From NCBI GenBank assembly GCA_963783375.1, contig CAWANH010000029.1:1-64000 (forward strand): a stretch of 64,000 bases of DNA, written 5' to 3'. Shown here in pieces: positions 13,244 to 42,601 of this stretch; the first letter of the stretch is position 1, and each line of letters opens with the position of its first letter. Position numbers and translations under genes: made by a program. The notes beneath the pieces were generated by a model. That model made no database searches and was not told the DNA's origin. It worked only from the letters and a program-made list of their open reading frames with translations. The stretch comes from Candidatus Eiseniibacteriota bacterium (GTDB taxonomy: Bacteria > Eisenbacteria > RBG-16-71-46 > JABDJR01).

Positions 13244-13412
13244 CCCGGCCGGAGTCCCGGCCCCCCGATCGTCCCCGCGAACCCTCCCCGTCGCCCCGAC
13301 CCGCCGCTCCCGTGGGCACAACCGGGCCCGATCCCGCGATCCGCGGCCGGCCGCGTTGCGGCATTCCGGATCCCGCCGGTATGATGATGCCCTCAACCGG
13401 GGAGGATGTGTC

Positions 13413-15097
13413 ATGAACGAGGAGATCCAACGGGACGAGCTGGAACTGGACGTGGTGTTCGTGGGAGCGGGGCCGTCGGGACTGGCCGGGGCCATTCACC
13501 TCGCGGATCTGGTGGCCGCCCACAACGAACAGGTGGAGAAGAGCGGCGAGGGGCGAAAGCTCGAGCCGGCCATCGCGGTGATCGAGAAATCGGCGGAGAT
13601 CGGCGCCCACATGCTCTCGGGCGCGGTCATGGACCCTCGCGGCCTCGATGCCCTCATCCCCGACTGGCGGGATCGGGATTGCCCGGTGGAGTCCCCGGTG
13701 ACCGACGACTCCATGCACTACCTTACCGCCGGCGGTTCGCTCAAGGCCCCGCTCACCCCGCCCCCCCTCCAGAACCACGGCAACTTCGTGGTCTCGCTCT
13801 ATCGCCTGGCCCGATGGCTGGGGGAAGAGGCGGAGAAGCGCGGGGTGGACGTGTTCCCCGGCTTTCCCGCGGTCGCGGTGCTCACCGACGGACCGCAGAT
13901 CGTCGGGGTGCGGACCGGGGACAAGGGGATCGACAAGCACGGAAACCGGAAGAGCAACTTCGAGCCCGGCGTGGACATCAAGGCCAAGGTCACCGTGTTC
14001 GGCGAGGGCACGCGGGGGAACCTGGTGAAGCAGCTCACCCTGGACCGGGGTCTGGCCGGGGTCAATCCCCAGACCTACGGCACCGGGGTGAAAGAGGTCT
14101 GGCAGGTCCCCGAGGGGCGGATCGCCCCCGGCGCCGTCTACCACACCCTGGGCCATCCGCTCGACGCCTCCACCTACGGCGGCGGCTGGATCTACGGCAT
14201 GGCCGACAACAAGGTATCGGTGGGCTTCGTGGTCGGCCTCGACTACCGGAACCCGACCACCGATCCCCACCACGAGTTTCAGCGCTACAAGGCGCACCCC
14301 TTCGTTCGATCGATCCTCGAGGGGGGGAGATGCTGGCCTACGGAGCCAAGACCGTGCCCCTGGGGGGCTGGTTCTCCATGCCCAAGCGGGTGCTCCCCGG
14401 CGCGCTGATCGTTGGCGATGCCGGCGCGTTCCTGAACGCGGAGCGGCTGAAGGGGATCCATCTGGCCATCGAGAGCGGGATGATGGCCGCCCGGACAACG
14501 TTCGAGGCCCTGAAAGCCGGGGACTACTCCGAGACGTCGCTCGCCCTCTACGACCAGATCTTCGCCCGAAGCCCGGCCCGGGACGAACTCTACGGGGTGC
14601 GGAATTTCCACCAGGGGTTCTCCGGCGGGCGCTGGGCGGGGATCGTGAACGCCGGGCTCCTCATGATCACCGGCGGGAAGGGGCTGGGCGACCGCACCGG
14701 CGTGGCCCGGGACCATACCCACATGCGGAAGCTCTCCCAGATCGACGGCCGCCCCCCCGAGCGGCTCAAGTTCGACGGCAAGCTCACCTTCGACAAGCTG
14801 ACCGACGTCTACAAGTCGGGGGCCACCCACGAGGAGGATCAGCCTTCGCATTTGGTGGTGAACGACACCGACATCTGCGCCGGGCGCTGCGTGGAGGAGT
14901 ACGGGAATCCTTGCCAGCATTTCTGCCCGGCCTCGGTCTACGAGATGGTGGAGGGGGAGGCGCCCTCGGGGAAGAAGCTTCAGATCAATGCCTCGAACTG
15001 CGTGCACTGCAAGACCTGCGACATCATGGATCCCTACCAGATCATCACCTGGGTCCCCCCCGAAGGGGGCGGCGGGCCCAAGTACACCGACCTGTAG
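13413..15097 (+). CDS. Electron transfer flavoprotein-quinone oxidoreductase (frameshifted in G7 run at 14321-14327)
   Basis: VGAGPSGLAGA and GAHMLSGA in the first frame; YGAKT, LIVGDAG, KGIHLAIESG and CxxFCPAxVY...NCVHCKTCDI in the second. One extra G restores a single ORF. Confidence 0.9.
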
Positions 15098-18058: not shown

Positions 18059-20587
18059 ATGGCGAGCCAGCCCTACATCCCCATCCGACCGCGCGATCCG
18101 GCCGAGCGCTACCGCTTCAAGTGCCGCCGGCTGGTGTGGCGGATGGTGCACGGCACCCGTGCCGCGCAGGTGGTGGAGCGCGAGCTAACCCTTCGGCTGG
18201 CCCAGACCCTTGCCGGTCTCCGCGCGGAGGAGCGCTACCGGAGGCTCGGCCACGTTCGGTTTGCCGACTTCTGCCTCGAGGTGTTGCAGCTCCATCCCCG
18301 CACCGCGCGTCGCCACGTGGCGCTCTGGGATGTTCTCTCACGTGTCCCTTCAGCGAGAACGGCGTTTCTTGCCGGCCGGGTGGACGTGAGCCGCATCCTG
18401 GCGTTGCGCACCGTCCTGACCGGGGCCACGGCCCCTGCTTGGCTTGCCCGGGCCCAGGGCGTGCCGGTGCGCGAGCTTCGGGAGTTGGTGAAGGCAGCGC
18501 GGTCCGGCCTGGAGGGGGATGGCGGGGAAAGTGGAGAACTGACTGGAGGCGAAGAGGAGAGGGGAAGCGGAGAGACAGGCCCGACCGGGGGGGTGACGGG
18601 TAACGGAGAGGTGGCGGGAAGCGGAGAGGGGACGAGGAGCAGCGAAGCGACGGGGAGCGGAACTGCGACGGCGGGCGAAGTTGGACATTCGAAGACATCG
18701 CCGGAACCGCCGCCGGTCCGGTTCACCGACCAGGATCTCGAAGAGCCGGAGCGGGAACGGATCACGTTCCTGGCCCCTCAAACCTCCGGCCTCGCCTTCG
18801 AGCACGCGCTCGAGACGGGTCGGCGGTTGCTCGGGTGGGATGCGCCCGCCGATGCCTGCCTGGATGCGATGCTGGCCGAAGCGGAGACTTCGGCGCCCTG
18901 GCTCGTGGGTGGGGTCGGCGATCCTCCCGGGGAGAACGAGGCTCCTGGGAGTGGGGGAGTGGGCGCGGCCGCGCCCGTCGATGACACGCACGGCCATGAA
19001 ACGCCGATGACCCGCGTAGGGGATGAGCCGCCGGCCACGCCGGGCTGGGCTCCCGGCGGGCGGTTGCCCTGGGCGGATCGTCCGTTCGTCTCCGCGAGGC
19101 GGTGGCGCGTGCTCCGGGGGCTGGAGGCTCCAGGGGTGCGGCGTCGGATGAACGGGGGTCCGGGCGCCTGGGATCCTTCCCGGCACCGCTACGACTACAA
19201 GCGCGCCGCCCACGCCTTCTCTAGCTTCCGGCGGGTGCTTGGGAAGGCGGAGCGGTTGGCGGCCGCCCGGCCGGATGACCCCCCGGTGACCGAGGCCCGG
19301 GCGCTTCTCGCTCGCTACCTGGAATTGGAGGCTCTGGGGCGGCCCCTCTTCGTGGCCCGGACGAGGCTCCTCTACCACCTGGACGTGCTGCACGCCGGCG
19401 CGCTCTTCGGGCTCGACACCACGGACGCCCTCGCGTCCCGGTTGCTCGGTCTTTCCGAGCGTGCCGCGCTCGAACACTACTGGGCGGGATGCCAGTTCCA
19501 GTTCGACCACACGATCGCCGACGCCTACATCCGCGGCGACATCGGCCTGAGCCATGTCGTCAACTGGAAGTTGCAGTCGGCGTCGACCGGGACGGGCTGG
19601 ATCCGGCGGGCCCGGTCGGTGACCTGCCGTCAGCTCCGGCGCGAAATGCAGTTCCTTCGCCGACTCAACGAGGTCCTGACCGCGGGACCCTTCGGGCCGC
19701 CGGAGCTGCTCCCGGATCCCGCGGTGGAGGCGGCCCTGCGGAAGCGACTCTTCAAGGCGGGATGGGGTCCCGGCAAGCTGGATCGGGAACTGGAGCAGCG
19801 TGGTCTCCTGGATCCCCCCGGTGCCTCCAAGGACCCCGCCGAGAACCCGGCGGTGATGGACCGGCTCGAAACGATGCTCGACATGGTGATCCTCTCGATA
19901 TGCCGGACCGTCTCGGACGACGACCCCGAAGTCCGATACCGGAAAACGTTGTCCACCCCGGGGCGCCACCACCGGGTGGTGATCTGGGCGCGACCGGAGA
20001 TCCGCGAGCGATGGGGACGAGCCTGCCGGGCGGTCCGTCGGGTGACCGGGGCCTGGCCCGAGTGGGCGGTGGCCGTTCTGGTCGCGCGGGTGGCGATGAA
20101 TGAGTGGGAGCGCCAGGATCCCGACCGCACCCCCACCGAACGGCGGATATTGGAGCGGGACGGCTACCGGTGCCAGGCTCCCGGATGCAGCAGCCGGAGC
20201 GGCCTGGAATCCCACCACATCCGGTTCCGCTCCCAGGGTGGGTCGAACACTCCCTCGAACCGGGTCACTCTGTGCCATGCCCATCATCACCACGCGATCC
20301 ACGCGGGCACGTTGAGGGTCAGCGGCCGCGCGCCCCATGCCCTCCTCTGGGAGTTCGGGTGCGCTCCCGGGGCCGGACCGCTCTGGGTCTACCGGGGCGA
20401 GCGCCTGGTACGAGGACCGGGGCGGGTCTCCCGGGGTCCGTCGAGGCGGGAGCCGGATCGGGCGGCCCGGCCGGGGGGACGGCCGGACCGCCGATCAGGC
20501 TTGGATCGAACCGCGACCGGTCAGGTTCCCACCTTGACCAGCCGGACCGCCGCGGACCGCCCCTCGGTCTGGATCCTGCAGAAGTAG
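18059..20587 (+). CDS. Large HNH endonuclease-domain protein (DUF222/13E12-like architecture)
   Basis: C-terminal ILERDGYRCQAPGC...SHHIRFRSQGGSN...NRVTLCHAHH; N-terminal YRRLGHVRFADFCLEVL helical region; 3' end overlaps the convergent cytochrome gene by 67 bp. Confidence 0.75.
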   Translation: MASQPYIPIRPRDPAERYRFKCRRLVWRMVHGTRAAQVVERELTLRLAQTLAGLRAEERYRRLGHVRFADFCLEVLQLHPRTARRHVALWDVLSRVPSARTAFLAGRVDVSRILALRTVLTGATAPAWLARAQGVPVRELRELVKAARSGLEGDGGESGELTGGEEERGSGETGPTGGVTGNGEVAGSGEGTRSSEATGSGTATAGEVGHSKTSPEPPPVRFTDQDLEEPERERITFLAPQTSGLAFEHALETGRRLLGWDAPADACLDAMLAEAETSAPWLVGGVGDPPGENEAPGSGGVGAAAPVDDTHGHETPMTRVGDEPPATPGWAPGGRLPWADRPFVSARRWRVLRGLEAPGVRRRMNGGPGAWDPSRHRYDYKRAAHAFSSFRRVLGKAERLAAARPDDPPVTEARALLARYLELEALGRPLFVARTRLLYHLDVLHAGALFGLDTTDALASRLLGLSERAALEHYWAGCQFQFDHTIADAYIRGDIGLSHVVNWKLQSASTGTGWIRRARSVTCRQLRREMQFLRRLNEVLTAGPFGPPELLPDPAVEAALRKRLFKAGWGPGKLDRELEQRGLLDPPGASKDPAENPAVMDRLETMLDMVILSICRTVSDDDPEVRYRKTLSTPGRHHRVVIWARPEIRERWGRACRAVRRVTGAWPEWAVAVLVARVAMNEWERQDPDRTPTERRILERDGYRCQAPGCSSRSGLESHHIRFRSQGGSNTPSNRVTLCHAHHHHAIHAGTLRVSGRAPHALLWEFGCAPGAGPLWVYRGERLVRGPGRVSRGPSRREPDRAARPGGRPDRRSGLDRTATGQVPTLTSRTAADRPSVWILQK

Positions 20588-22038
20588 ATCCCGGCCGGCA
20601 TCGCCCGGCCTCCCTCGTCGCGACCGTCCCACACCAGGGTGTGGTGGCCGGGGGTCTGGGCGCTCCGGGTGAGGACGCGCACCTCCCGCCCATTGGCGTC
20701 GTAGACGGCCAGGTGGATCGGGTCGTTGCCCAGGACCTCGTAGCTGATCTCCGTCCGGGCCCCGAAGGGGTTCGGGGAGGGCATGACTCGCGCGGTCACC
20801 CCATTCCCGGGAAGCTGATCGCCCACCCCGGTTACCACGAACCCGTGGGGTCCGGCTCCGGTCGGGGTGTAGCCGTGGCACACGTCGCAGCGACGCAGGG
20901 TGCCGGTCGCCCCCTGCAGCGCCACGGTCTGCCGGTTGTCCCGCTCCTCCCGTGAAGGGAGGATGGCGTGGGGGCTGTTGTGGCAGGTGGGACAGTACAG
21001 GTTTCCGTGGCCGTTGTTGGAATTCCGGTAGAGGGTGTTGGCGGCCTCGGCGTAGGTGGAGCCGTGGCAGGTCTCGCACCGGGGCTCGTCGAGCCACGGC
21101 CGGCGGCCGTCCTTGATCGATTCCGCCACGTCCCGCACCGACCCGTGGCAGTTCTGGCAGACCAGGTGGAAGTCGGTGGCCATGGTTCCGCGCAGGCACT
21201 GGGTGTTCGGCCCGGGATGACACTGGTAGCAGTTGTTGGTCTCCTCGGCGTGCTGGTCGTGCATGGCCTCGGACAGGCTGGGGAGGCCCGGGGTTCCCGG
21301 CGCCCCCAGGGCGTTGCTGGCGTGGCAGCTTGCGCAGAGGACCGGGGTGCTGGTGGCCAGATGGGTCCCATTCTCCTCGTCGTGAAGCCGGAGGATCGAG
21401 TGCTCGACGGTTTCTCCGGTCCGCGGATGGTGGCAGTTGGAGCACATCATTTCGGTGGAGATCGGGGCCACGATCTCCGTAGACGCCAGGAGCGCCTGGG
21501 AGGCGTCCCGGGCCTCGAGCTCCGCGAGCTGGAAGGGCTGCTTGTTCACCAGATCGCTGTCGGTGTATTCGGTGAGCGGAATCCCCTCGGCATGGAAATG
21601 ATCGGGGGCGGCGTCCATGGTGCCGGTGAGACCCCGTCCGGTGAGCCCGATGTTCGGAGGGATGGTCGTCCCGAAGATCTGGGAGGCGTAGGTCCAGAAG
21701 TCGGTCTTGCCCACCGAGTAGGTGTTGTCCTGGAACCGGTAGCTCACGGTGATGTCCGAGGTCACGACCTCGGGGAGGCGAGCCGGGTCCCCTCGGCGGA
21801 TCACCGTTGCCCAGAGAGTGTTGTAGGGGGGTAGAACCGTGAGGTCCTGGAACCGCGCGTTGGCGCAGTGCATCCCCAGGTCGTTCCAGCCGATCAGGAT
21901 GTAGTCGCCGGTGGCTGCGGTTGCGAGGGTGGGAGTGGGGGCGTTCTGAGCTCGGGACACGGGGATCGGGAGGGTCTGGAGCAGGAGAATCGCGAAGAGA
22001 GGCAGGAAGTAGCGGGCGAACGGGCTCGGGACACGCAT
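20521..22038 (-). CDS. Secreted multiheme cytochrome c (7 CxxCH) with C-terminal FlgD Ig-like domain
   Basis: GGAGA SD; signal peptide; WNDLGMHC; CSNCH, CASCH, CYQCH, CQNCH, CETCH, CPTCH, CDVCH; then PSPNPF...YDANGREVR...WDGRD...AGIYFCRI. Confidence 0.9.
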   Translation of the reverse strand: MRVPSPFARYFLPLFAILLLQTLPIPVSRAQNAPTPTLATAATGDYILIGWNDLGMHCANARFQDLTVLPPYNTLWATVIRRGDPARLPEVVTSDITVSYRFQDNTYSVGKTDFWTYASQIFGTTIPPNIGLTGRGLTGTMDAAPDHFHAEGIPLTEYTDSDLVNKQPFQLAELEARDASQALLASTEIVAPISTEMMCSNCHHPRTGETVEHSILRLHDEENGTHLATSTPVLCASCHASNALGAPGTPGLPSLSEAMHDQHAEETNNCYQCHPGPNTQCLRGTMATDFHLVCQNCHGSVRDVAESIKDGRRPWLDEPRCETCHGSTYAEAANTLYRNSNNGHGNLYCPTCHNSPHAILPSREERDNRQTVALQGATGTLRRCDVCHGYTPTGAGPHGFVVTGVGDQLPGNGVTARVMPSPNPFGARTEISYEVLGNDPIHLAVYDANGREVRVLTRSAQTPGHHTLVWDGRDEGGRAMPAGIYFCRIQTEGRSAAVRLVKVGT

Positions 22039-22194
22039 GGTTGTCTCCTCCATGAAGCGTCGACGGTCTGGCCCGCGGTCAATCCGCGGGCCCGGCTTGG
22101 AGGGAGTGCCCGTAACCCGCCAAGCGCGCTGAAGCAGCTGCCGATGAACAGACGCACGACCCTGAATTGAGTCACGGAAATTCGGCGACCGGCT

Positions 22195-22270
22195 TTCTTC
22201 AAGACCCGGGATTCTCCAAGACCCGGGATTCTTCAAGACCCTGGATTCTTCAAGAACCGGGGTTCTTCAA
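22195..22270. repeat. 17-bp tandem repeat, about 4.5 copies
   Basis: TTCTTCAAGACCCGGGA-like units starting at 22195, 22212, 22229, 22246 and 22263. Confidence 0.85.
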
Positions 22271-22359
22271 TGACCAGCACTCTTCAACAACTAGCCTGGG
22301 GGAGCGATCTGGACCGGAAGAAACAACTAACCGTAGGAACGGCTTGGGCGCCGGGTCAA

Positions 22360-22546
22360 TGACCCGGAACAAGATCACGGCGGGAGGTTTAGCAATCCGC
22401 TGGATCAGTGACCCGGAACAAGCTCATGGCGGGAGATTTGACAAGCCGCTGGATCAGTGACCCGGAACAAGATCACAGCGGGAGGTTTGACAAGCCGCTG
22501 GATCAGTGACCCGGAACAAGATCACAGCGGGAGGTTTGACAAGCCG
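22360..22546. repeat. 49-bp tandem repeat, about 3.8 copies
   Basis: TGACCCGGAACAAGATCACAGCGGGAGGTTTGACAAGCCGCTGGATCAG-like units at 22360, 22409, 22458 and 22507. Confidence 0.9.
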
Positions 22547-22647
22547 TCGCTTGCAGGATGGCGGGGGTACCCACGAAGGGATAGGCCGAGCTCCCGGTCA
22601 TCCAACGGAGGCTCGAGGAGCCGCCGCCGGCAGAGCCTGCCCGGTCA

Positions 22648-23331
22648 TCACGGCCCGGACTGCTTCTCCGGCGTCGGGTCCCCTTCGGTATCGCGCGGGG
22701 CGGCCCCCGCCTCGCGAACCAGGGTCTCGAGAACGGCATAGGGTTGGGCGCCCACCACCACCCGCCCGCCGGCGGTGTAGGTGGGGATGCCGGTAACCCC
22801 GGCGGCCACCGACTCCGCCCAGTCCCGGTCGATCGCCTTCTGGAAGGTGCGCTTCTCGATGACCTCCCTGGCCTCGGCTGGGTCCAGACCCACCGACCCG
22901 GCCAGCCCGGCCAGGACGTCCTCTTCGGCGATGTTCTTCCCGTCCACGAAGTAGGCGTGGAAGGCCGCGCGATTGAACTCGGGCCCCCTCCCCTGGGATT
23001 CGGCCCACTTGCCGACCTCCTGGGCCAGGCGGCTGTTGTAGGTCATGGTCCGCTCGGACATGGGGAGCCCTTCCTGGGCGGCGAGGCCGCGCAGCCGTTT
23101 CTGGCCGGCGCGGATCCGCGCTTCGGCGTCCGGACCGCCGCCGAAGAGATCCGTCAGGGACTGCCCCTTCATCGGCGTATCGGGATGGAGGGGGAAGTGG
23201 ACGTAACGAACCCGTACGTCGTACTCGCGGATGAGTTTCTCAACACGGACCGTGCCGAGGTAGCACCATGGTCAGACGTAGTCGGAGTAGACGACGAGTT
23301 CCACCGGCTCGTGGTTCGTCGGGACGGCCAT
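22648..23331 (-). CDS. DsbA/FrnE-family thiol oxidoreductase, selenoprotein (UPWC)
   Basis: GGAGG SD then MAVPTNHEPVELVVYSDYV-TGA-PWCYLG...HFPLHPDTP, in frame with the 22648-23172 ORF (TYNSRLAQ, GVTGIPTY, GAQPY). TGA at 23272-23274 occupies the first Cys of CPWC. Confidence 0.88.
23239..23259 (-). promoter_or_regulatory. Bacterial SECIS-like hairpin
   Basis: CUCGGCACG-GUC-CGUGUUGAG stem-loop starting 12 nt after the UGA, with G first in the apical loop. Confidence 0.7.
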
Positions 23332-34446: not shown

Positions 34447-36977
34447 ATGAACCGGTTTCGAGCGGCAATCCTCTTCCTCATTCTCTTCCTCTCGTTCAAC
34501 GCCTCCCCCGCCCCCGGAGAGGTACCGTCGGGGGCGTTGGATCCCGCGCTGCGCGCCCTGCTCGATCGCTCGCCCGAAGCGGCGGGGGGAGTTCTCTCCG
34601 AGGCCGCGGCCGGACGTCCGTCGGTCATCCCGCTCAGCCTGGGCTCGGCGGTGATCCCCGGGAATCCCCCCCGGCTCGAGGTCTTCCTGCGTGGGACGGA
34701 CGGGGGGGTTCCCGGCGGGCCCGGGGTGGACGTCATCCCGCTGGGGGACGGCCTCTACGGAGGTCTCGTCACCCTGGACGGCCTCCGCCGACTCCTGGCC
34801 GGGGAGGGCATCGCCGCCGCCCGCCTCTCCCGACCGGTTCAACCCGCCCTCGACCGGAGCGCCGCCTTCCTGGGAATGAACCTGATCCGGCGTCAGAACC
34901 CCCAGACCGGCGGATTCAGCGGCATCACCGGCAAGGGGGTGCTGGTGGGGCTCGCGGACAGCGGCGTGGACTGGAACCACCCCGACTTCCGCAATCCGGA
35001 CGGCACCACCCGGTTCGCCTGGTTCTGGGACCAGACCGTACCCTTCGGCCGACCCCCCCAGGGCTACCCGGTGGGGGAGGAGTACGACGCGCGCCTGCTC
35101 AACGGCGGCATCGGCGCCGCCTACGATCCCTCCGGCCACGGCACCCACGTGATGGGGATCGCCGCCGGAAACGGACGGGGTTCCCTGGTTCCCGGACGGG
35201 GGGCGCTCTACGTGGGCATCGCCCCCGAGGCGACCCTGATCGGGGTGCGTATCTCCTTCACCGAGCTGGGGGTGGCCATGGCCGCGAAGTACTTCTTCGA
35301 CAAGGCCGCTGAAATGGGCATGCCCGCGGTGCTCAACCTCAGCCTGGGAAACCAGTACGGTCCCCATCTGGGGGACACCCCCCTGGAGAATTCCCTCGAG
35401 AGCCGGGTCGGGCCCGGGCGGCTGATCGTGGCCGCGGCGGGCAATGATGGCGACCGCGATCTCCACGCCTGGATGGAGGTCGGGACCGGCGAATCCGACA
35501 CCCTCACCGTGGACCTGCCCCGCTACTCCAGGGACGGTTCGTTCAACTACGTCGACTTTGCCGGATGGTTCGACGTCCGGAACCGTTACCGATTCACCGT
35601 GCTCGACCCCGCCGGGGAGGCGGTGGGGGTCCTGAACTGGGGAGACACCGACGCGTCCTTCCAGAGCGGTTTCGGGGAGGTCCGGGGTTGGAACACCGAG
35701 GATATCGGGTACGGAAGCGTCCTGGTGGAAATCGCCGATGACGACAAGAGCCCGAGCCTGGCCGTGGGGGAGTACAAGCTGGTGGTGGAGGGGGTGGACG
35801 TCACCACCTCGCCCCGGGTCGATTTCTGGCTCGTGAGTTGGGTCAACAACCGCGACCGGGAGCCCAGCTTCCTCGACCACGCCGACCGCCGGGAGACCGT
35901 GCTGAACCCGGCCACCGCGCCGCACATCCTCGCGGTGGGCGCCCTCTCCACCCGGTCCTGCTGGACCGACGTGACCGGGAAGGAGCGTTGCTACACCACG
36001 CCCCCCGCCTACGGCGCCGTCGCCTACTTCTCCAGCCTGGGTCCCTCCGCCGACGGGCGCGTGAAGCCGGAGGTGCTGGCGCCGGGTTTCGGGGTGGTCT
36101 CCGCCCGGTCCTCCAACATCGACCCCGACGCCTACGATCCGGACCTGCTCAAGACCCTGAGCACTCCCGATCGTCTCTACTGGGTGAATCAGGGCACCAG
36201 CATGGCCGCGCCCCACGCCACCGGCACGGTGGCGCTTCTGCTTCAGCGCTTTCCGCGCATGACCTACGAGCAGATGGTCGGCCGGCTGACCTCCCGCTCC
36301 GAGCCCACCCTCGATCCCCGCACCGGGGATCAGGACCGCGCGCTTTTGACCGGGGAGGCGGTGGCCCCCATGGTCCGGATTCTCCTGTCCGAGGTCGAAC
36401 CGGATCCGGCCGGCGTTCGGATCCGCTGGTTTGCGGGCAAGAGCCGCGGCGAGACCCACTATCGGGTGTACAAGGGGTTCTCGGACCGGGGCCCCTTCGA
36501 GGCCCTGAACAGCGCCCGCATCGAGGGGGAGAATCCCTACGAGGTGGTCGACTCCCATCCGGAGCCGGGGCGGACTCAGGTGTACCGCATCGCCGTGGCC
36601 GACCGGAGGGGCCTGGAAGAGGACCTAGACACGCTCCGGGTGGACGTCACCGGCACCCCGTCCCCCGTCCTGCGCGCTCCCGCGCCCAACCCCGCCGCGG
36701 GCCCGGTGTCGGTGAGCTTCTTCCTTCCTCCCGGCGGCGCGGGGGGGAGTGGCGTCTCACCGCCTACGACGTCGCCGGGCGGCGGGTGGCGGTGGCGGCG
36801 TCGGGGGAGTTCGGGCCCGAGGGGACCGAGGCCAACGCGGTATGGGACCTCCGGCGGGACGACGGCCGGCGGGTGGCCGGCGGCCTGTACTTCCTGCGCC
36901 TCGACGCCACGACCACCCGGGCCGACGGATCGACGGCGTCCCGTACCTTCAGCCGGCGGGTGGCGGTGCTTCCGTAG
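34447..36977 (+). CDS. Secreted S8 subtilase with C-terminal FlgD-like domain (frameshifted in G7 run at 36741-36747)
   Basis: DSGVD, GHGTHVMGIAAG and GTSMAAPH catalytic triad; PAPNPA. One extra G joins it to WRLTAYDVAGRRV...WDLRRDDGRRVAGGLYFLRL. Confidence 0.88.
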
Positions 36978-37112
36978 ACCGGATCCAGGTCGGTCCGCTG
37001 GGTCTGCCCGGGCCCTCGAGCTCTTGCCCCGCGTTGCCCGTCACCAACCGCACCGCCCGCGCACCCTCGGTGAACCCGGGAGCGCGGACAGGACAGGCTC
37101 CCGGAAAGGCAG

Positions 37113-38384
37113 TCAGTCCAGGTCGCGCTCCAACACCAGCAGGGTCACGTCGTCCTGGAACTCGGCGCGGATCAATCCCGAGGCGGTTCGCAGCACGAAG
37201 TCCACCGATTGATCGAGGGGAACTGCATGTGCCTCGTCGAGGGTGCGGGCGAGAAGGGATGTCGAGAAGATGGAGCCGTCCGGGCACTGTGCGTCGATTA
37301 TCCCGTCGGAGTAGAGCCACAGTCGGTCCCCGGGCTGCAGGAGAAGTCGGTTGGACCGGATGGGCTCGGGGACGGCGAAGTCGGGACCGATGAGGGTTCC
37401 GCTCTCTTGGTCGCTCATGATCTGCACCGAGTTGCGCCCGGTCAGGATGGGGGGTTCATGACCGGCCGACGCCCAGGCGACCTCGCCAAGCGAGACGTCC
37501 AGAACGCCGTAGATCAGGGTGAAGAAGAGGCCCGTGCGTTCGGTGTCCGTGAAGTGTGCCCGCAGGGACGAGAGAACATTCATGGGAGTAGCCACTTCAT
37601 AGTAGGGCGGGCCAGGTAGTTTGCATTTCACGAGCGTGTTTTGCCCGGGCACCGGAATCAGGAGGCGAGACACTGTAATCGCAAGCATGGCCGCCGCCGC
37701 CCCGTGCCCCGAGACATCAAGGATGAAGAAGCCGATTCGTCGCTCATCGAGCCGGAACACGTTCAGCATGTCCCCGGACACATGCGTGCACGGCTTGAAC
37801 CGCCATGCGAACCGGTACGCTCCCAAGGTTGGAGCGTCGAGTGGCAGCAGGGCTCGTTGGAGGGTCGCCGCCGCCGTGAGATCTTCCCCGAGTGTCCGGT
37901 TCTGCTCGAGGAGTCGCCGGTGTAGGTGGACGATTCGCTGCCCGGCTTGGATGCGTACCCTCAGCTCCTCGGTGTTGAATGGCTTCGCCAGAAAATCGTC
38001 TGCTCCCGCCTCGAGGCCTTCTACCAGGTCGTGGTCGTTTCCCCGGCCGGTGAGGATGATGGCATAGACGGACTCTCCATCTCTCGTAGCGCGGATGCGG
38101 CGGAGAAGGCCAAGCCCGCTGAGCTTCGGCATGTTCCAGTCGGTGATGACGAGACTGAACCGTTCTCGTTGGAGAAGGTCCCAGGCTTCCTCTCCATCCG
38201 TGGCCGTGAAGACGGAGAACCCGAGTTCACCAAGCATGCCGGCCAGGACGTCGCGGACCCCAGCGTCATCATCGACGACCAGGATGTGATCCAGATCGCC
38301 GCCGGGCAGACGTGACGAAGATTCGGGAAGGACGTGTCCGCCCAACTCGGGATTGGGGGGGGACAGTTTGGGCTGGGGCATCAC
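37113..38384 (-). CDS. Response regulator with PP2C/SpoIIE phosphatase domain (RsbU/RsbP-like)
   Basis: LVVDDD, ITDWNMP, GADDFLAKP; SGD, DVSGHG, SAGH, YSDGI, QDDVT. Confidence 0.92.
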   Translation of the reverse strand: MMPQPKLSPPNPELGGHVLPESSSRLPGGDLDHILVVDDDAGVRDVLAGMLGELGFSVFTATDGEEAWDLLQRERFSLVITDWNMPKLSGLGLLRRIRATRDGESVYAIILTGRGNDHDLVEGLEAGADDFLAKPFNTEELRVRIQAGQRIVHLHRRLLEQNRTLGEDLTAAATLQRALLPLDAPTLGAYRFAWRFKPCTHVSGDMLNVFRLDERRIGFFILDVSGHGAAAAMLAITVSRLLIPVPGQNTLVKCKLPGPPYYEVATPMNVLSSLRAHFTDTERTGLFFTLIYGVLDVSLGEVAWASAGHEPPILTGRNSVQIMSDQESGTLIGPDFAVPEPIRSNRLLLQPGDRLWLYSDGIIDAQCPDGSIFSTSLLARTLDEAHAVPLDQSVDFVLRTASGLIRAEFQDDVTLLVLERDLD

Positions 38385-39599: not shown

Positions 39600-39995
39600 A
39601 CCGTAGTCGGGCCCACTGGAGGCTCCGACGACGGGTGGAGATCGGGTCGTAAAGCGACACGCTGCCGGTGCTTGAAGACGGTCTGGAAGCGGCGCTTCGA
39701 GAGTCGCTGGGACGCCGGGTTGCGGAGCAAAGGCGCGTCCGGGGCCACGAATTCGCTCGATCGCAGCTTGTGCCCCCAGGACCGTTGCAGCTTCCCTGGA
39801 AGAGTATCGGGAGGAATACGTCGCCGACCCGGCCACCATTGGCGATCTCGCGGCGCAGGCGAACCCGTCCTCGAGCTCTCCCGTCGGCACTGCATGCGGT
39901 AAATCGGCCACGGACCGCACTATCGCCGGCTGATGTTCAGCCTCCGCCGCCGAAAGGGGCACCTGGTGAGCGGAGGATCGCGCCTTCCCGGTGGG

Positions 39996-40710
39996 TCAGT
40001 CCTCGGGGAGAATCTGCTCGGGCCAGCCGACGATCAGGTGAAGCAACGCTGGCTCGGCGGTATCGACCACGCGGTTGATGAGGACGCGCTCGCCGTCGGG
40101 GGCGAGCGCGTAGATCCCCGGCTCGGCGAACACGTGACGCCGCCCTTCGACGCGGAACAAAGGGCGGACGGCGCCCAGCACGGGACGGTCTCCGCCGAGT
40201 TCCGCGCTGACCGCCAGGAGCCGATAGTCGGGGGAGACGAAAAAGAGCTCGCCCTCCCTTGGATTCCACTCGGGGCGGATGCCGCCGTTCGAGGAGACCT
40301 GCCAGGCGCGGCCGCCCTCCGGAAAGCGGGCGAGGTATACCTCGTAGCGCCCCGAGGCGTTCGAAGTCTAGGCGACCCAGCCGCCGTCGGGAGAAACGGC
40401 GGCGTCTTCCTCGCTGAAGGGCGACGACCGGATCGGAAACGGCTCCCCGCCGCCGCTCACCGGGGCGGCCCAGAGGTCGGGAGATTCATCCCGATAGAAC
40501 GTGCAGTAGACCAGCAGCGAGCCGTCTCCGGCCCAGTCGAGGGGGAAGGCCCCCGCGATCGCCGGAGCGTCCGCGGGCCGGTTTCCCCCGTACTCGGCCA
40601 CCCCCCCCGGGAAGAGCGGCTCGGCGTCGGTGCGGCCGAGGATTTGGACGTAGACCTCGAGGGTCCCCGAGCGGTCCGAGCTGAACGCGATGCGCCGGCC
40701 GTCCGGGGCG
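39996..40710 (-). pseudogene. C-terminal PD40/TolB-like beta-propeller fragment, of the type found on Ser/Thr kinases, with premature stop
   Basis: PDGRRIAFSSDRSG...SPDGGWVA*TSNASGRYEVY...WQVSSNGG...LAPDGERVL...IVGWPE. TAG at 40368-40370 lies in an otherwise continuous frame. No 5' end. Confidence 0.75.
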
Positions 40711-40712
40711 GG

Positions 40713-41642
40713 GACCGGGACGGGTTCGACGATGTGGTGGTGGGCGCGGTGGGTCACAATACGGCCTTCGCGGATGCGGGCCGCGTTTACGTTCTCGGGT
40801 TCAACCGCTATCACCTGGTGAACCCGGCGGCGGGGGAGACGTGGAACGTGGGGGCGGCGGAGGAGATCTCCTGGCTGGGCGCCGAGCCGGCGGACGTGTG
40901 GCTTTCGGTGGACGGGGGCAACAGCTACTCCCTGCTGACCACGGACGCGGGGGGCGCCGCGCTGAGCGCGGTGAGGTTGACGGTGCCGCATCAGCCGACG
41001 CGGTTCGCCGAGATCAAACTGACGCCTTCGGATCCCTCGGTGGTGGGGAGTGCCACGACGGACTCGCTGTTCACGATCGAGGCGTCGATCGCGCTGCTGA
41101 ACCTGAAGGCGGCGCCGGTGGACGGTGGCGGCGTGCTCCTCAGCTGGGAGACCGATCCCGGCCCGGAGGATCTGGCGGGGTACAAGGTGGAACGTTCGCC
41201 GGTCGCCGGCGACTCCTGGCGCGTCCTGGCGACCCAGGTGCGGGAGACCGAGTACCTGGACGCCGGTGGCGGCCCCGGCATGCGGTACCGGCTGAGCGGC
41301 ATCAACGGTCTCGGGGAAGAGCTCCTCCTCGGCGAGACCGCGTTGACCCCGCGGGTCGCTCTGGCGGCCTGGCCGCTGCCCTACCGGGGCGGGGATCTCA
41401 CCCTCTCCTTCGCCACCTTCGGGGGTCAGGGGGGTGGGACGGGCCTGGCCCGGGTGGCGGTCTACGACGTGCAGGGCCGCCTGGTGCGCACGATCGCCGA
41501 CGGGAGCTACGAAGCCGGGCATCAGGTCGTCACGTGGAACGGGCGCGACGAAAACCGTCGCGCGGTTCCGAGCGGCGTGTACTTCATCCGGTCTTCCAGT
41601 GCCGGGGTGAGTCACCAGATCAAGCTGATCGTGGTGCGCTAG
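40713..41642 (+). pseudogene. 3' fragment of an FG-GAP repeat protein with FlgD-like C-terminal domain
   Basis: Begins mid-repeat at DRDGFDDVVVGA...AGRVYV; ends YDVQGRLVR...WNGRD...SGVYFIR. Upstream sequence is antisense of the PD40 fragment. Confidence 0.7.
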
Positions 41643-41649
41643 GAAATCG

Positions 41650-42601
41650 ATGTCCATGATGCGGAGGGTTGCGAGTCTGGGTACGGGGCTAATGGCGCCG
41701 CCCTGGTCGCCGCAGGGCCGCTGGAGGCGACCACGCTCTACGCGCTCGTCGACACCGGGGAGATCTTCGCCTCCGGCGACGGCGGGGCGACCTGGCCGTC
41801 CGGACCGACGGAGCGCTGCTGGCGCTCACGCATTCCGGAACGGTCTGGATCTCCACCGACGGGGGGATGACATTCTCGGCGGAGGCCTCACTCGGCGCCT
41901 CGGACCTGGTCTCACCGGCGCGCGACCCGAGTGGCGCGTTCTACGCGGTGACCGGGACAGGCACCGTCCGCCGGAGTGTCGACGGCGGCGCGACGTGGAT
42001 CGCGGTGGGCACAGCGCCGGTCTCGGACGCGGTGGCGGTGCGGTCGGGAGGCGATACGAGCTACGTTCTCGCCGGGACCGGGCTCACCTACCGAAGCCAG
42101 GATCAGGGCGCGAGCTGGTCCGCGGTGGGCACGGTGAGCCAGGTGGGCATGGTCGCGCTCACTGTCTCCGAGGGCGAGCTGGTCGCGGTGAGTCGGGAGG
42201 GGCTGGTCGCCCGGAGCCCGGATGGCACGGCATGGACGTGGGTGGGTGCGGTGAACCAGCTGAACGTGGTCGCGCTCGCCGATGACAGGCCGCAGGCCGT
42301 CGGAGTGCCGAAGAGGCCGGGGACAGCGCTCCGGCTTCGGCTGGCACCGCCGCGACCCAACCTGCTTCGGTCCGGCGAGACGCTCGCGCTGGAGGTCCCG
42401 CTTCCCGAGGACGACATCCTGAACGTCGCCCTGTACGACGCGGAGGGGAGGCTCGCGGCCGCGCGGGCTCCGGAACCGCTGCCGGCGTCGGAGGGCGGCA
42501 TTCTTCGCTGGAGCCCCGGCCCTCTTCCGGCGGGGGTCTACTTCGTCCGGGTGGCCGGTCGACACGGCCGTTCGAGTCGAAGACTCGTCGTCGTGCCCTA
42601 G
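41650..42601 (+). pseudogene. BNR/Asp-box repeat secreted protein with CTD-like tail, two frameshifts near the 5' end
   Basis: Signal-like start in frame 1; ASGDGGATW in frame 2; STDGGMTF, SVDGGATW, SQDQGASW and PRPNL...YDAEGRL...AGVYFVR in frame 3. Confidence 0.65.

Follow-up and report, generated by a model that had tools for sequence, protein, structure and literature searches.

Sequence, profile and model-based evidence points to a seven-heme c-type cytochrome fitted for export by a type IX secretion system (T9SS). Its gene lies on the minus strand of a 64,000-nucleotide stretch of Candidatus Eiseniibacteriota DNA (positions 1 to 64,000 of contig CAWANH010000029.1, assembly GCA_963783375.1; hereafter the window) and encodes 505 amino acids (aa), comprising a predicted signal peptide, an Ig-like N-domain, a seven-heme domain and a T9SS type A C-terminal domain (CTD). 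We consider T9SS export of this protein highly probable and, granted export, a role as electron relay likely. The combined reading, a T9SS-exported relay on the outer surface, is the best that we can offer and in our judgment stands somewhat above even chances. Such a protein would join two known kinds, T9SS cargo and outer-surface multiheme cytochrome, through a core that is uncharacterized. The host genome is 97% complete; among relatives that bear a name, the nearest carry the title Ca. Eisenbacteria.

The open reading frame (ORF) has no internal stop, and the signal peptide, WNDLGMHC motif, seven CxxCH motifs, TGVGD linker and C-terminal domain named by a first-pass annotation of this DNA were all located in its translation. 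With seven conserved motifs, a predicted export signal and ccmABCEF in the genome, the product is almost certainly a true holo-cytochrome. The CxxCH motifs start at residues 199, 235, 270, 294, 321, 349 and 384; 100,000 rounds of shuffling residues 191-400 yielded at most three, which rules out a chance origin, and the protein contains no CxxCK motif. Across 102 close sequences, the Cys, Cys and His of every heme site are kept in 101 to 102 rows, one row lacking site 4. Site 1 takes the form CX4CH in 50 of these rows and site 5 in 43, so that plain CxxCH counting comes out two hemes short for roughly half of the close family. Outside the heme motifs, H57, H219, H260, H263, H344, H357, H398, M56, C58 and C281 are invariant in the close rows, and M286 is kept in 101 of 102. 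M56, H57 and C58 are present in all 99 alignment rows that cover them and nearly invariant across 149 distant representatives. M286 is replaced by His in 22 of the latter; since a Met/His exchange fits a ligand role, we count it as a candidate heme ligand. Nine conserved His and Met would suffice for six-coordination of all seven hemes, an arrangement that suits a wire better than an enzyme. The surplus of candidates (nine for seven hemes) may mark an active site, and C58 may pair with C281.

The candidate signal peptide, a heuristic reading, has a basic start, a hydrophobic stretch (peak 10-residue hydropathy 2.9) and small residues before Q31 with a VSRA end, and it carries neither twin Arg nor lipobox. 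An assembly chimera of core and tail was rejected: of the 41 next-best homologs, 40 carry PF13860, and the junction between heme domain and tail is spanned by an RNA-library contig that is 94% alike. In a single sediment RNA study, four runs contain small fractions of the gene, most of which is covered by contigs 80-98% alike; these come from relatives, possibly through DNA carry-over, and serve solely to place the fusion outside the assembly, not to indicate expression.

The tail scores 34.6 bits against the T9SS type A profile TIGR04183 (cut-off 23) over residues 422-502 of 505, and 40 bits against Pfam FlgD_ig (cut-off 27). It contains a VYDANGREV loop (445-453), a WDG hairpin (470-477), a GIY motif and a terminal RLVKV. 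Aligned by eye, V445-YDANGRE-V453 (G450) matches the RgpB loop I694-FDMNGRR-V702 (G699), described as essential for secretion in the relevant passages of PMC11285876. An extra hairpin is reported there for the CTDs of PorU and PorZ, and the WDG hairpin is its counterpart. In the last strand, K502 or R499 could be the equivalent of the conserved T9SS Lys. An AlphaFold2 model of the whole protein (mean predicted local distance difference test [pLDDT] 87.8) gives the tail seven strands at pLDDT 82-97, and Foldseek pairs it with the CTDs of PorZ (5m11; root mean square deviation 3.2, 92 columns) and mirolase (8qb1; target template modeling [TM] score 0.60), as well as with FlgD. By profile and predicted fold, the tail is a variant of the T9SS type A CTD and not a flagellar domain. 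It shares homology with the Ig/FnIII domain of FlgD (PF13860), and "FlgD" is a mere label for it in this lineage. A flagellar FlgD role was rejected, as the protein lacks the FlgD N-terminal region and scores 31.5 bits against PRK06655 (cut-off 230); the genome's own flgD lies at C28:1930779, before flgE in the flagellar cluster. Of the original description of the tail as FlgD/T9SS-like, the T9SS half, including the CTD fold, is borne out and the flagellar half is not.

The tails of this genome, combined into a profile, match 123 ORFs, in 119 of which, proteases among them, the tail lies 15 or fewer residues from the end; the hairpin pattern is present in 91 of the 119. Four further ORFs of the window carry the same end domain (1372-2442, 35742-36977, 39903-41642 and 41693-42601). 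One of them, 35742-36977, overlaps an S8 protease ORF (34447-37212) in a different frame, and 39903-41642 has a weak FG-GAP match. The first-pass statement that this CTD caps proteases and adhesins in the window therefore holds broadly, with the qualification that those genes are frameshifted. A separate observation is a second T9SS-tailed cytochrome of another family (C28:1343150-1345806), with five CxxCH motifs, 28.7 bits against TIGR04183 and a weak ExtKL match; a GEGP-type heme domain with a signal peptide lies upstream and appears to have been separated from it.

The translocon and heme-maturation genes that the first-pass annotation had proposed looking for are present. SprA is encoded at C29:765039-771268 (485.6 bits, cut-off 200) and PorU at C29:136830-140996 (401.7 bits, slightly below the cut-off of 420), the catalytic His/Cys motifs of the latter aligning with those of Porphyromonas gingivalis PorU (6za2). 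Directly after porU lies a PorV-family gene (189.3 bits, cut-off 90), one of six over cut-off in the genome; the porU-linked PorV was matched in all 61 genomes of the class. A ccmA-B-C-E-F run occupies C28:1856359-1861495, its gene names read from the sequences and the CcmC/F family confirmed by profile. Downstream of porU-porV, a 1,125-aa gene (C29:148362-151739) contains a short SprA-like segment (E about 1e-6), weakly seen in relatives too; it is possibly an additional T9SS component.

Homologs of the cytochrome number 2,949 among 7,996 scored candidates, and a profile that includes some tail columns retrieved 685 representatives at 50% identity (E <=1e-30). Within the phylum, the family is present in 27 of 121 genomes. 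GTDB yielded at least 583 matches, of which we compared the best 78 loci. None of these belongs to a cultured organism, and the genomes are kin, so that counts are not independent; tails were assigned by scans of 50 of the 78 proteins and by local profiles on all. The core ends at GPHG, and the tails beyond it differ. T9SS-type tails occur at 19 loci, 14 of them over the TIGR04183 cut-off and 5 scoring solely as FlgD-like; the remainder are dockerin-like, SLH or transmembrane tails, a lipobox without tail, or a short motif of Chloroflexota, at either end, that we label YLP-like. SprA was matched in 37 of 40 non-Chloroflexota genomes, including all 19 with the T9SS tail (18 over cut-off), the three misses being genomes without it. 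Among 38 Chloroflexota carriers, neither SprA nor a T9SS tail was found. PorU was matched in 38 of the 40 genomes and a cytochrome c assembly protein in the tail carriers, both in 19 of 19. GldM appears in 13 of the 40, all but one Bacteroidia-type by title, and in 6 of the 19 tail carriers, which on that basis were counted as having the full T9SS motor. The first-pass annotation had placed the protein in a candidate phylum, a restriction that falls away: the T9SS-tailed version also occurs in Bacteroidales with complete T9SS, in Calditrichaeota, in Ignavibacteria and in others.

Tails have been exchanged repeatedly. When 206 cores were placed on a FastTree tree, the CTD label switched 11 times, with well-supported branches forcing at least 7 of the switches, and 13 lipoproteins sit inside the supported 54-row group that contains this cytochrome. 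Labels were assigned by pattern and hand-corrected; excluded from the tree were two rows nearly identical to the query, three that were frameshifted or chimeric, three with another architecture, duplicates, and rows without the N-motif or with fewer than six heme motifs. The lipobox pattern flagged none of 133 tailed rows and missed 5 of 17 accepted lipoproteins. Tail type tracks host lineage, with long hairpin tails in Eisenbacteria-type hosts and short ones in Bacteroidia. In 76 distant representatives, the partners fused to the core include T9SS CTD (16), SLH, cohesin, dockerin, PKD, fn3, CARDB and DUF11, modules familiar from surface proteins. In L035, L054 and P0121 the whole core is duplicated, giving 14 motifs.

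Three further observations touch the family. Dockerin-like tails (L033, L036, L038, L040, L044, L053, L056 and L066; L037, L041, L043, L045 and L048) occur in SprA-positive genomes titled Zixibacteria or Ignavibacteria and in Bacteroidales, and could be unrecognized T9SS signals or anchors. At Chloroflexota loci (L047, L055, L075 and L079, for example), the YLP-like motif stands directly behind the signal peptide or else closes the C terminus, rarely both, and is probably a movable sorting tag. The host itself encodes a WNDLGMHC-family paralog (C29:1586549-1587937) with eight motifs, a lipobox, no tail and a core 47% identical; second copies of this kind were found in same-genus genomes.

Export by itself provides no electron path across the outer membrane, and a conduit would still be required; the first-pass proposal of a new path to extracellular electron transfer stands only with that amendment. 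Conventional porin-cytochrome-like clusters are encoded in the genome, in which multiheme genes are abundant. The cluster at C29:1459097-1475600 encodes a DmsE/MtrA-like decaheme protein that scores 169 bits against a cut-off of 192, along with a protein of 42 motifs, an NHL propeller and an NrfH-like protein. A 510-aa neighbor in this cluster has ESM Atlas look-alikes that include MtrB/porin clusters, which we treat as a lead only. Further multiheme clusters lie at C28:1119371-1128821 and C1:15661-20642, the three together including 42- and 51-motif proteins; their unannotated neighbors may be porins. The MtrB profile TIGR03509 found no match in the genome, in a search that had no positive control. 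Two hexaheme genes at C29:1469464-1471788 were considered as OmcS-like and dropped for want of a PDB sequence match. Overall, a conventional electron route across the outer membrane probably exists, encoded far from the cytochrome gene.

Sec delivers proteins to the periplasm, and Ccm attaches c-type hemes solely there. In the mechanism that we propose, the cytochrome would be exported to the periplasm by Sec, loaded with heme by Ccm and folded there. According to passages in PMC11285876 and PMC12618676, T9SS cargo acquires its fold in the periplasm, ahead of export, and PorV collects the type A tails. T9SS tails can, moreover, be specific to a species (PMC11285876). The folded holo-protein would then pass through the SprA channel and be handed over to PorV, and PorU would cleave it near TGVGD, the candidate cleavage region, before it is attached to the surface or released. 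On the surface or just outside it, the protein would relay electrons, in either direction, between outer-membrane conduits and minerals, humics, electrodes or partner cells, supplied by the porin-cytochrome cluster at C29:1459097-1475600.

Several results weigh against this proposal. GldM and GldN gave no match in the 97% complete genome (the GldN search had no positive control, and GldK and GldL were not searched), nor did GldM in any of 27 non-Bacteroidia-type genomes; divergent versions are possible, the GldM search having its control in the 13 Bacteroidia-type genomes where it was positive. Because secretion in Flavobacterium requires the GldL motor, according to the passages in PMC9127263, and GldM and GldN were not found here, export in this lineage is unproven. 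PorP gave weak matches, and sprA consists of two ORFs split at a run of seven G, probably a sequencing error; the gene is in a single frame in genome G002. In a plain sequence search of the PDB, the best solved matches of the tail were FlgD proteins and not T9SS CTDs, a preference likely due to the WDG hairpin. A crude N-terminal hydropathy test was passed by 68 of 117 tailed genes versus a background of 1,030 of 2,988. The co-occurrence of tail and SprA is partly due to kinship, a different tail or a lipobox is found in 18 SprA-positive carriers, and the lipoprotein forms might be oriented toward the periplasm. The 78 loci share no porin or partner cytochrome, and the core model (pLDDT 92.5, predicted TM score 0.90) is without hemes.

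In one rival reading the protein is a periplasmic shuttle, either because the motor-less SprA/PorV/PorU set does not export or because the tail is an Ig-like docking module. Besides the missing Gld proteins and the frameshifted sprA, such a shuttle would account for the 13 close relatives that carry a lipobox instead of the tail, for which surface exposure is not required, and for the likeness of the long WDG-hairpin tail to the uncleaved CTDs of PorU and PorZ. A motor-less PorV/SprA/Plug set in Melioribacter and Ignavibacterium is described in PMC11705866, in a passage that offers no functional proof. Against it stand the 119 ORFs, proteases included, that end in the tail, the joint retention of SprA, PorU and PorV across the lineage, the presence of GldM in six tail carriers, and the SLH and other cell-surface modules on Chloroflexota homologs; moreover, a hairpin added to RgpB blocked neither export nor cleavage (PMC11285876, in part). 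We regard a periplasmic location as rather improbable. An extracellular redox enzyme, also exported by the T9SS, seems to us a little less so, if still unlikely. Here the Met-His-Cys motif and one open heme would form the active site, fed by the other hemes, and the substrate would be a small sulfur, nitrogen, metal or peroxide compound. With nine His/Met candidates for seven hemes, at least two serve otherwise, M56-H57-C58 is conserved far across the family, and the orphan gene has no conduit beside it; known T9SS cargoes are mostly enzymes, as far as the consulted parts of PMC10202324 and PMC11205867 go. Against an enzyme stand the absence of CxxCK from the protein, a number of His that is enough for full six-coordination, and the lack of any match to a catalytic multiheme family over cut-off in Pfam or NCBIfam; the double cores of some relatives suit a wire or a store.

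A store is what the protein would be if it were released in soluble form into the medium or biofilm matrix as an electron store, redox buffer or iron-mobilizing reductant uncoupled from respiration. Cutting the tail leaves no anchor, and the patchy distribution within the phylum would be in keeping with such a role. Some type A cargo, such as RemA, is processed and released (PMC12618676, in part), and a passage of PMC11495043 speculates on a capacitor-like role for secreted multihemes of sludge Bacteroidota. Relatives have nevertheless gained tethers repeatedly (lipobox, SLH, dockerin-like and transmembrane tails), which argues for staying attached, and the PorU catalytic motifs are intact; we think free release quite improbable. 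The surface relay exported by the T9SS remains the reading that we prefer.

Relative to known T9SS type A cargo (TIGR04183/PF18962; RgpB, HBP35, mirolase, PorZ and PorU), the protein shares the signal peptide, the terminal seven-strand CTD, the beta3-beta4 loop motif and a host that encodes SprA, PorV and PorU. It differs in being a covalent c-type multiheme protein and in the FlgD_ig-scoring WDG hairpin of its tail, and the host departs from the canonical Bacteroidota system in its undetected GldM and GldN. Like MtrC, OmcA and MtrF of Shewanella (PF22113, TIGR03507), it places a multiheme domain behind a beta-sandwich, has a conserved pair of non-heme Cys and is rich in conserved His; the role proposed for it, as outward terminal partner of a porin-cytochrome conduit, is another point in common. 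MtrC and OmcA are lipoproteins exported by type II secretion; the present protein has no lipobox, its gene is not beside an mtrAB pair, and it has seven hemes in one beta and one heme domain rather than ten hemes in four domains with two pentaheme domains. PF22113 reaches 23 bits (cut-off 30), TIGR03507 is absent from the match list, and the Foldseek match to 6qyc, made with a heme-free model, is insignificant (E 5e-3, TM 0.14).

Hemes 5-7 score 39.3 against the cytochrome c7 family PF14522 (cut-off 24.8), but the match to c7/c3 proteins (PF14522, PF14537) is confined to a 70-residue piece, and no solved member was matched by sequence or fold; c7 proteins are small and periplasmic, without N-domain or tail. 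Geobacter OmcZ, OmcS, OmcE and PgcA are extracellular multihemes that carry electrons beyond the outer membrane, as proposed here, but no match of the present core to a solved chain was found by sequence or fold, the proposed export route is another one, and no filament cluster lies nearby. PDB sequence searches with the protein and two alignments returned nothing for the core, Foldseek gave no match to it at E <=0.001, and VIA-align reached no Z >=5 among 997 chains or among 48,161 chains (best Z 4.8, to generic Ig folds); these fold negatives come from a heme-free model spanning residues 1-316 and do not show a new fold. The ESM Atlas returned solely uncharacterized c7-labelled clusters. By sequence and model, the core is an uncharacterized family without clear solved relative.

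Table 1. Positions in the window of the cytochrome gene and its predicted parts.
Feature	Residues	Positions	Strand	Remarks
Whole gene (signal peptide, Ig-like N-domain, seven-heme domain, T9SS type A tail)	505 aa	20521..22038	minus	
Shine-Dalgarno GGAGGAG		22045..22051	minus	6 nt 5' of ATG at 22038
Predicted Sec signal peptide	1-30	21949..22038	minus	by eye from sequence, with hydropathy
N-terminal beta-sandwich domain	about 41-197	21448..21918	minus	generic Ig-like fold matches, Z <=4.8
WNDLGMHC motif	51-58	21865..21888	minus	
Seven-heme domain	199-398	20845..21444	minus	
Candidate distal ligands	H219, H260, H263, H344, H357, H398, M286 (core); H57, M56 (N-domain)			conservation
TGVGD linker	403-407	20818..20832	minus	directly after GPHG core end, where tail-less relatives stop
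T9SS type A CTD	about 415-505	20524..20796	minus	profile and model, seven predicted strands

The gene is flanked by an HNH gene and a DsbA-like gene and, in contrast to porin-cytochrome conduit operons of the MtrCAB/Pcc type, has no adjoining porin or periplasmic multiheme gene. Multiheme neighbors occur at only 4 of the 78 loci, and conservation of the neighborhood does not extend past the genus. A search upstream of the gene found no sigma-70-like promoter, and the cytochrome has no plasmid match. The HNH gene is an 842-aa ORF (18059-20587, plus strand) with a C-terminal HNH domain, overlapping the 3' end of the cytochrome gene tail to tail; its Pfam HNH match is weak, and its 43.5 bits against an IscB profile are far under cut-off. 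Upstream of the cytochrome gene lie two tandem arrays, at 22178-22287 (five 17-nucleotide units) and 22349-22593 (about four to five 49-nucleotide units), and a minus-strand gene (22648-about 23410) whose family, DsbA/FrnE-like, was read from its sequence. There an in-frame TGA (23272-23274), conserved in the relatives L027 and L028, replaces the first Cys of a CPWC-type motif and is followed by a hairpin; the genome encodes a tRNA-Sec at C29:217530, and the gene likely encodes a selenoprotein thiol oxidoreductase. Frameshifted genes of the window (13356-15097, 34447-37212 and 39903-42601) and sprA suggest sequencing errors in the assembly.

To our knowledge, Gram-negative bacteria place cytochromes outside the cell through porin complexes, by type II secretion of lipoproteins, or as filaments. 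In open-access papers and bioRxiv, we found no literature joining type IX secretion with multiheme or c-type cytochromes, and none among the matches listed pairs the T9SS with these candidate phyla. In the portions consulted, two reviews of T9SS cargo do not use the word cytochrome, and the sole heme-related cargo that they name is the heme-uptake protein Hbp35. Database names for these proteins derive from the tail alone, which together with the CX4CH sites may explain why they were overlooked. On electrodes and in iron-rich sediments, anaerobic Bacteroidales, Ignavibacteria, Calditrichaeota and Eisenbacteria-type bacteria frequently reach high abundance, with no mechanism known for them. Passages in PMC11495043 and PMC9769843 point the same way; the former counts secreted multihemes of Bacteroidota and Krumholzibacteriota without giving a route there, and part of PMC11285876 raises the possibility of T9SS components beyond the Bacteroidota.

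As a wider proposal, which we advance tentatively and rate a little short of even, the T9SS may serve much of the Fibrobacteres-Chlorobi-Bacteroidetes (FCB) superphylum as a dedicated export route for cytochromes that are already folded and loaded with heme. In Eisenbacteria-type bacteria a stripped-down form (SprA, PorV and PorU, without Gld motor) would place a seven-heme protein of unsolved fold on the surface, as outer terminal of extracellular electron transfer. Dockerin-like, SLH, lipid or YLP tags would tether the module in other phyla, and it would be a widespread and overlooked surface electron carrier in anoxic soils and sediments. If the cytochrome is indeed exported in the way proposed here, the T9SS would be an additional export route for cytochromes, carrying cargo that is covalently loaded with heme, and anaerobic Bacteroidales, Ignavibacteria, Calditrichaeota and Eisenbacteria-type bacteria would gain a testable gene. 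It would also raise the question whether SprA, PorV and PorU can export upward of 100 proteins in the absence of the Gld motor.

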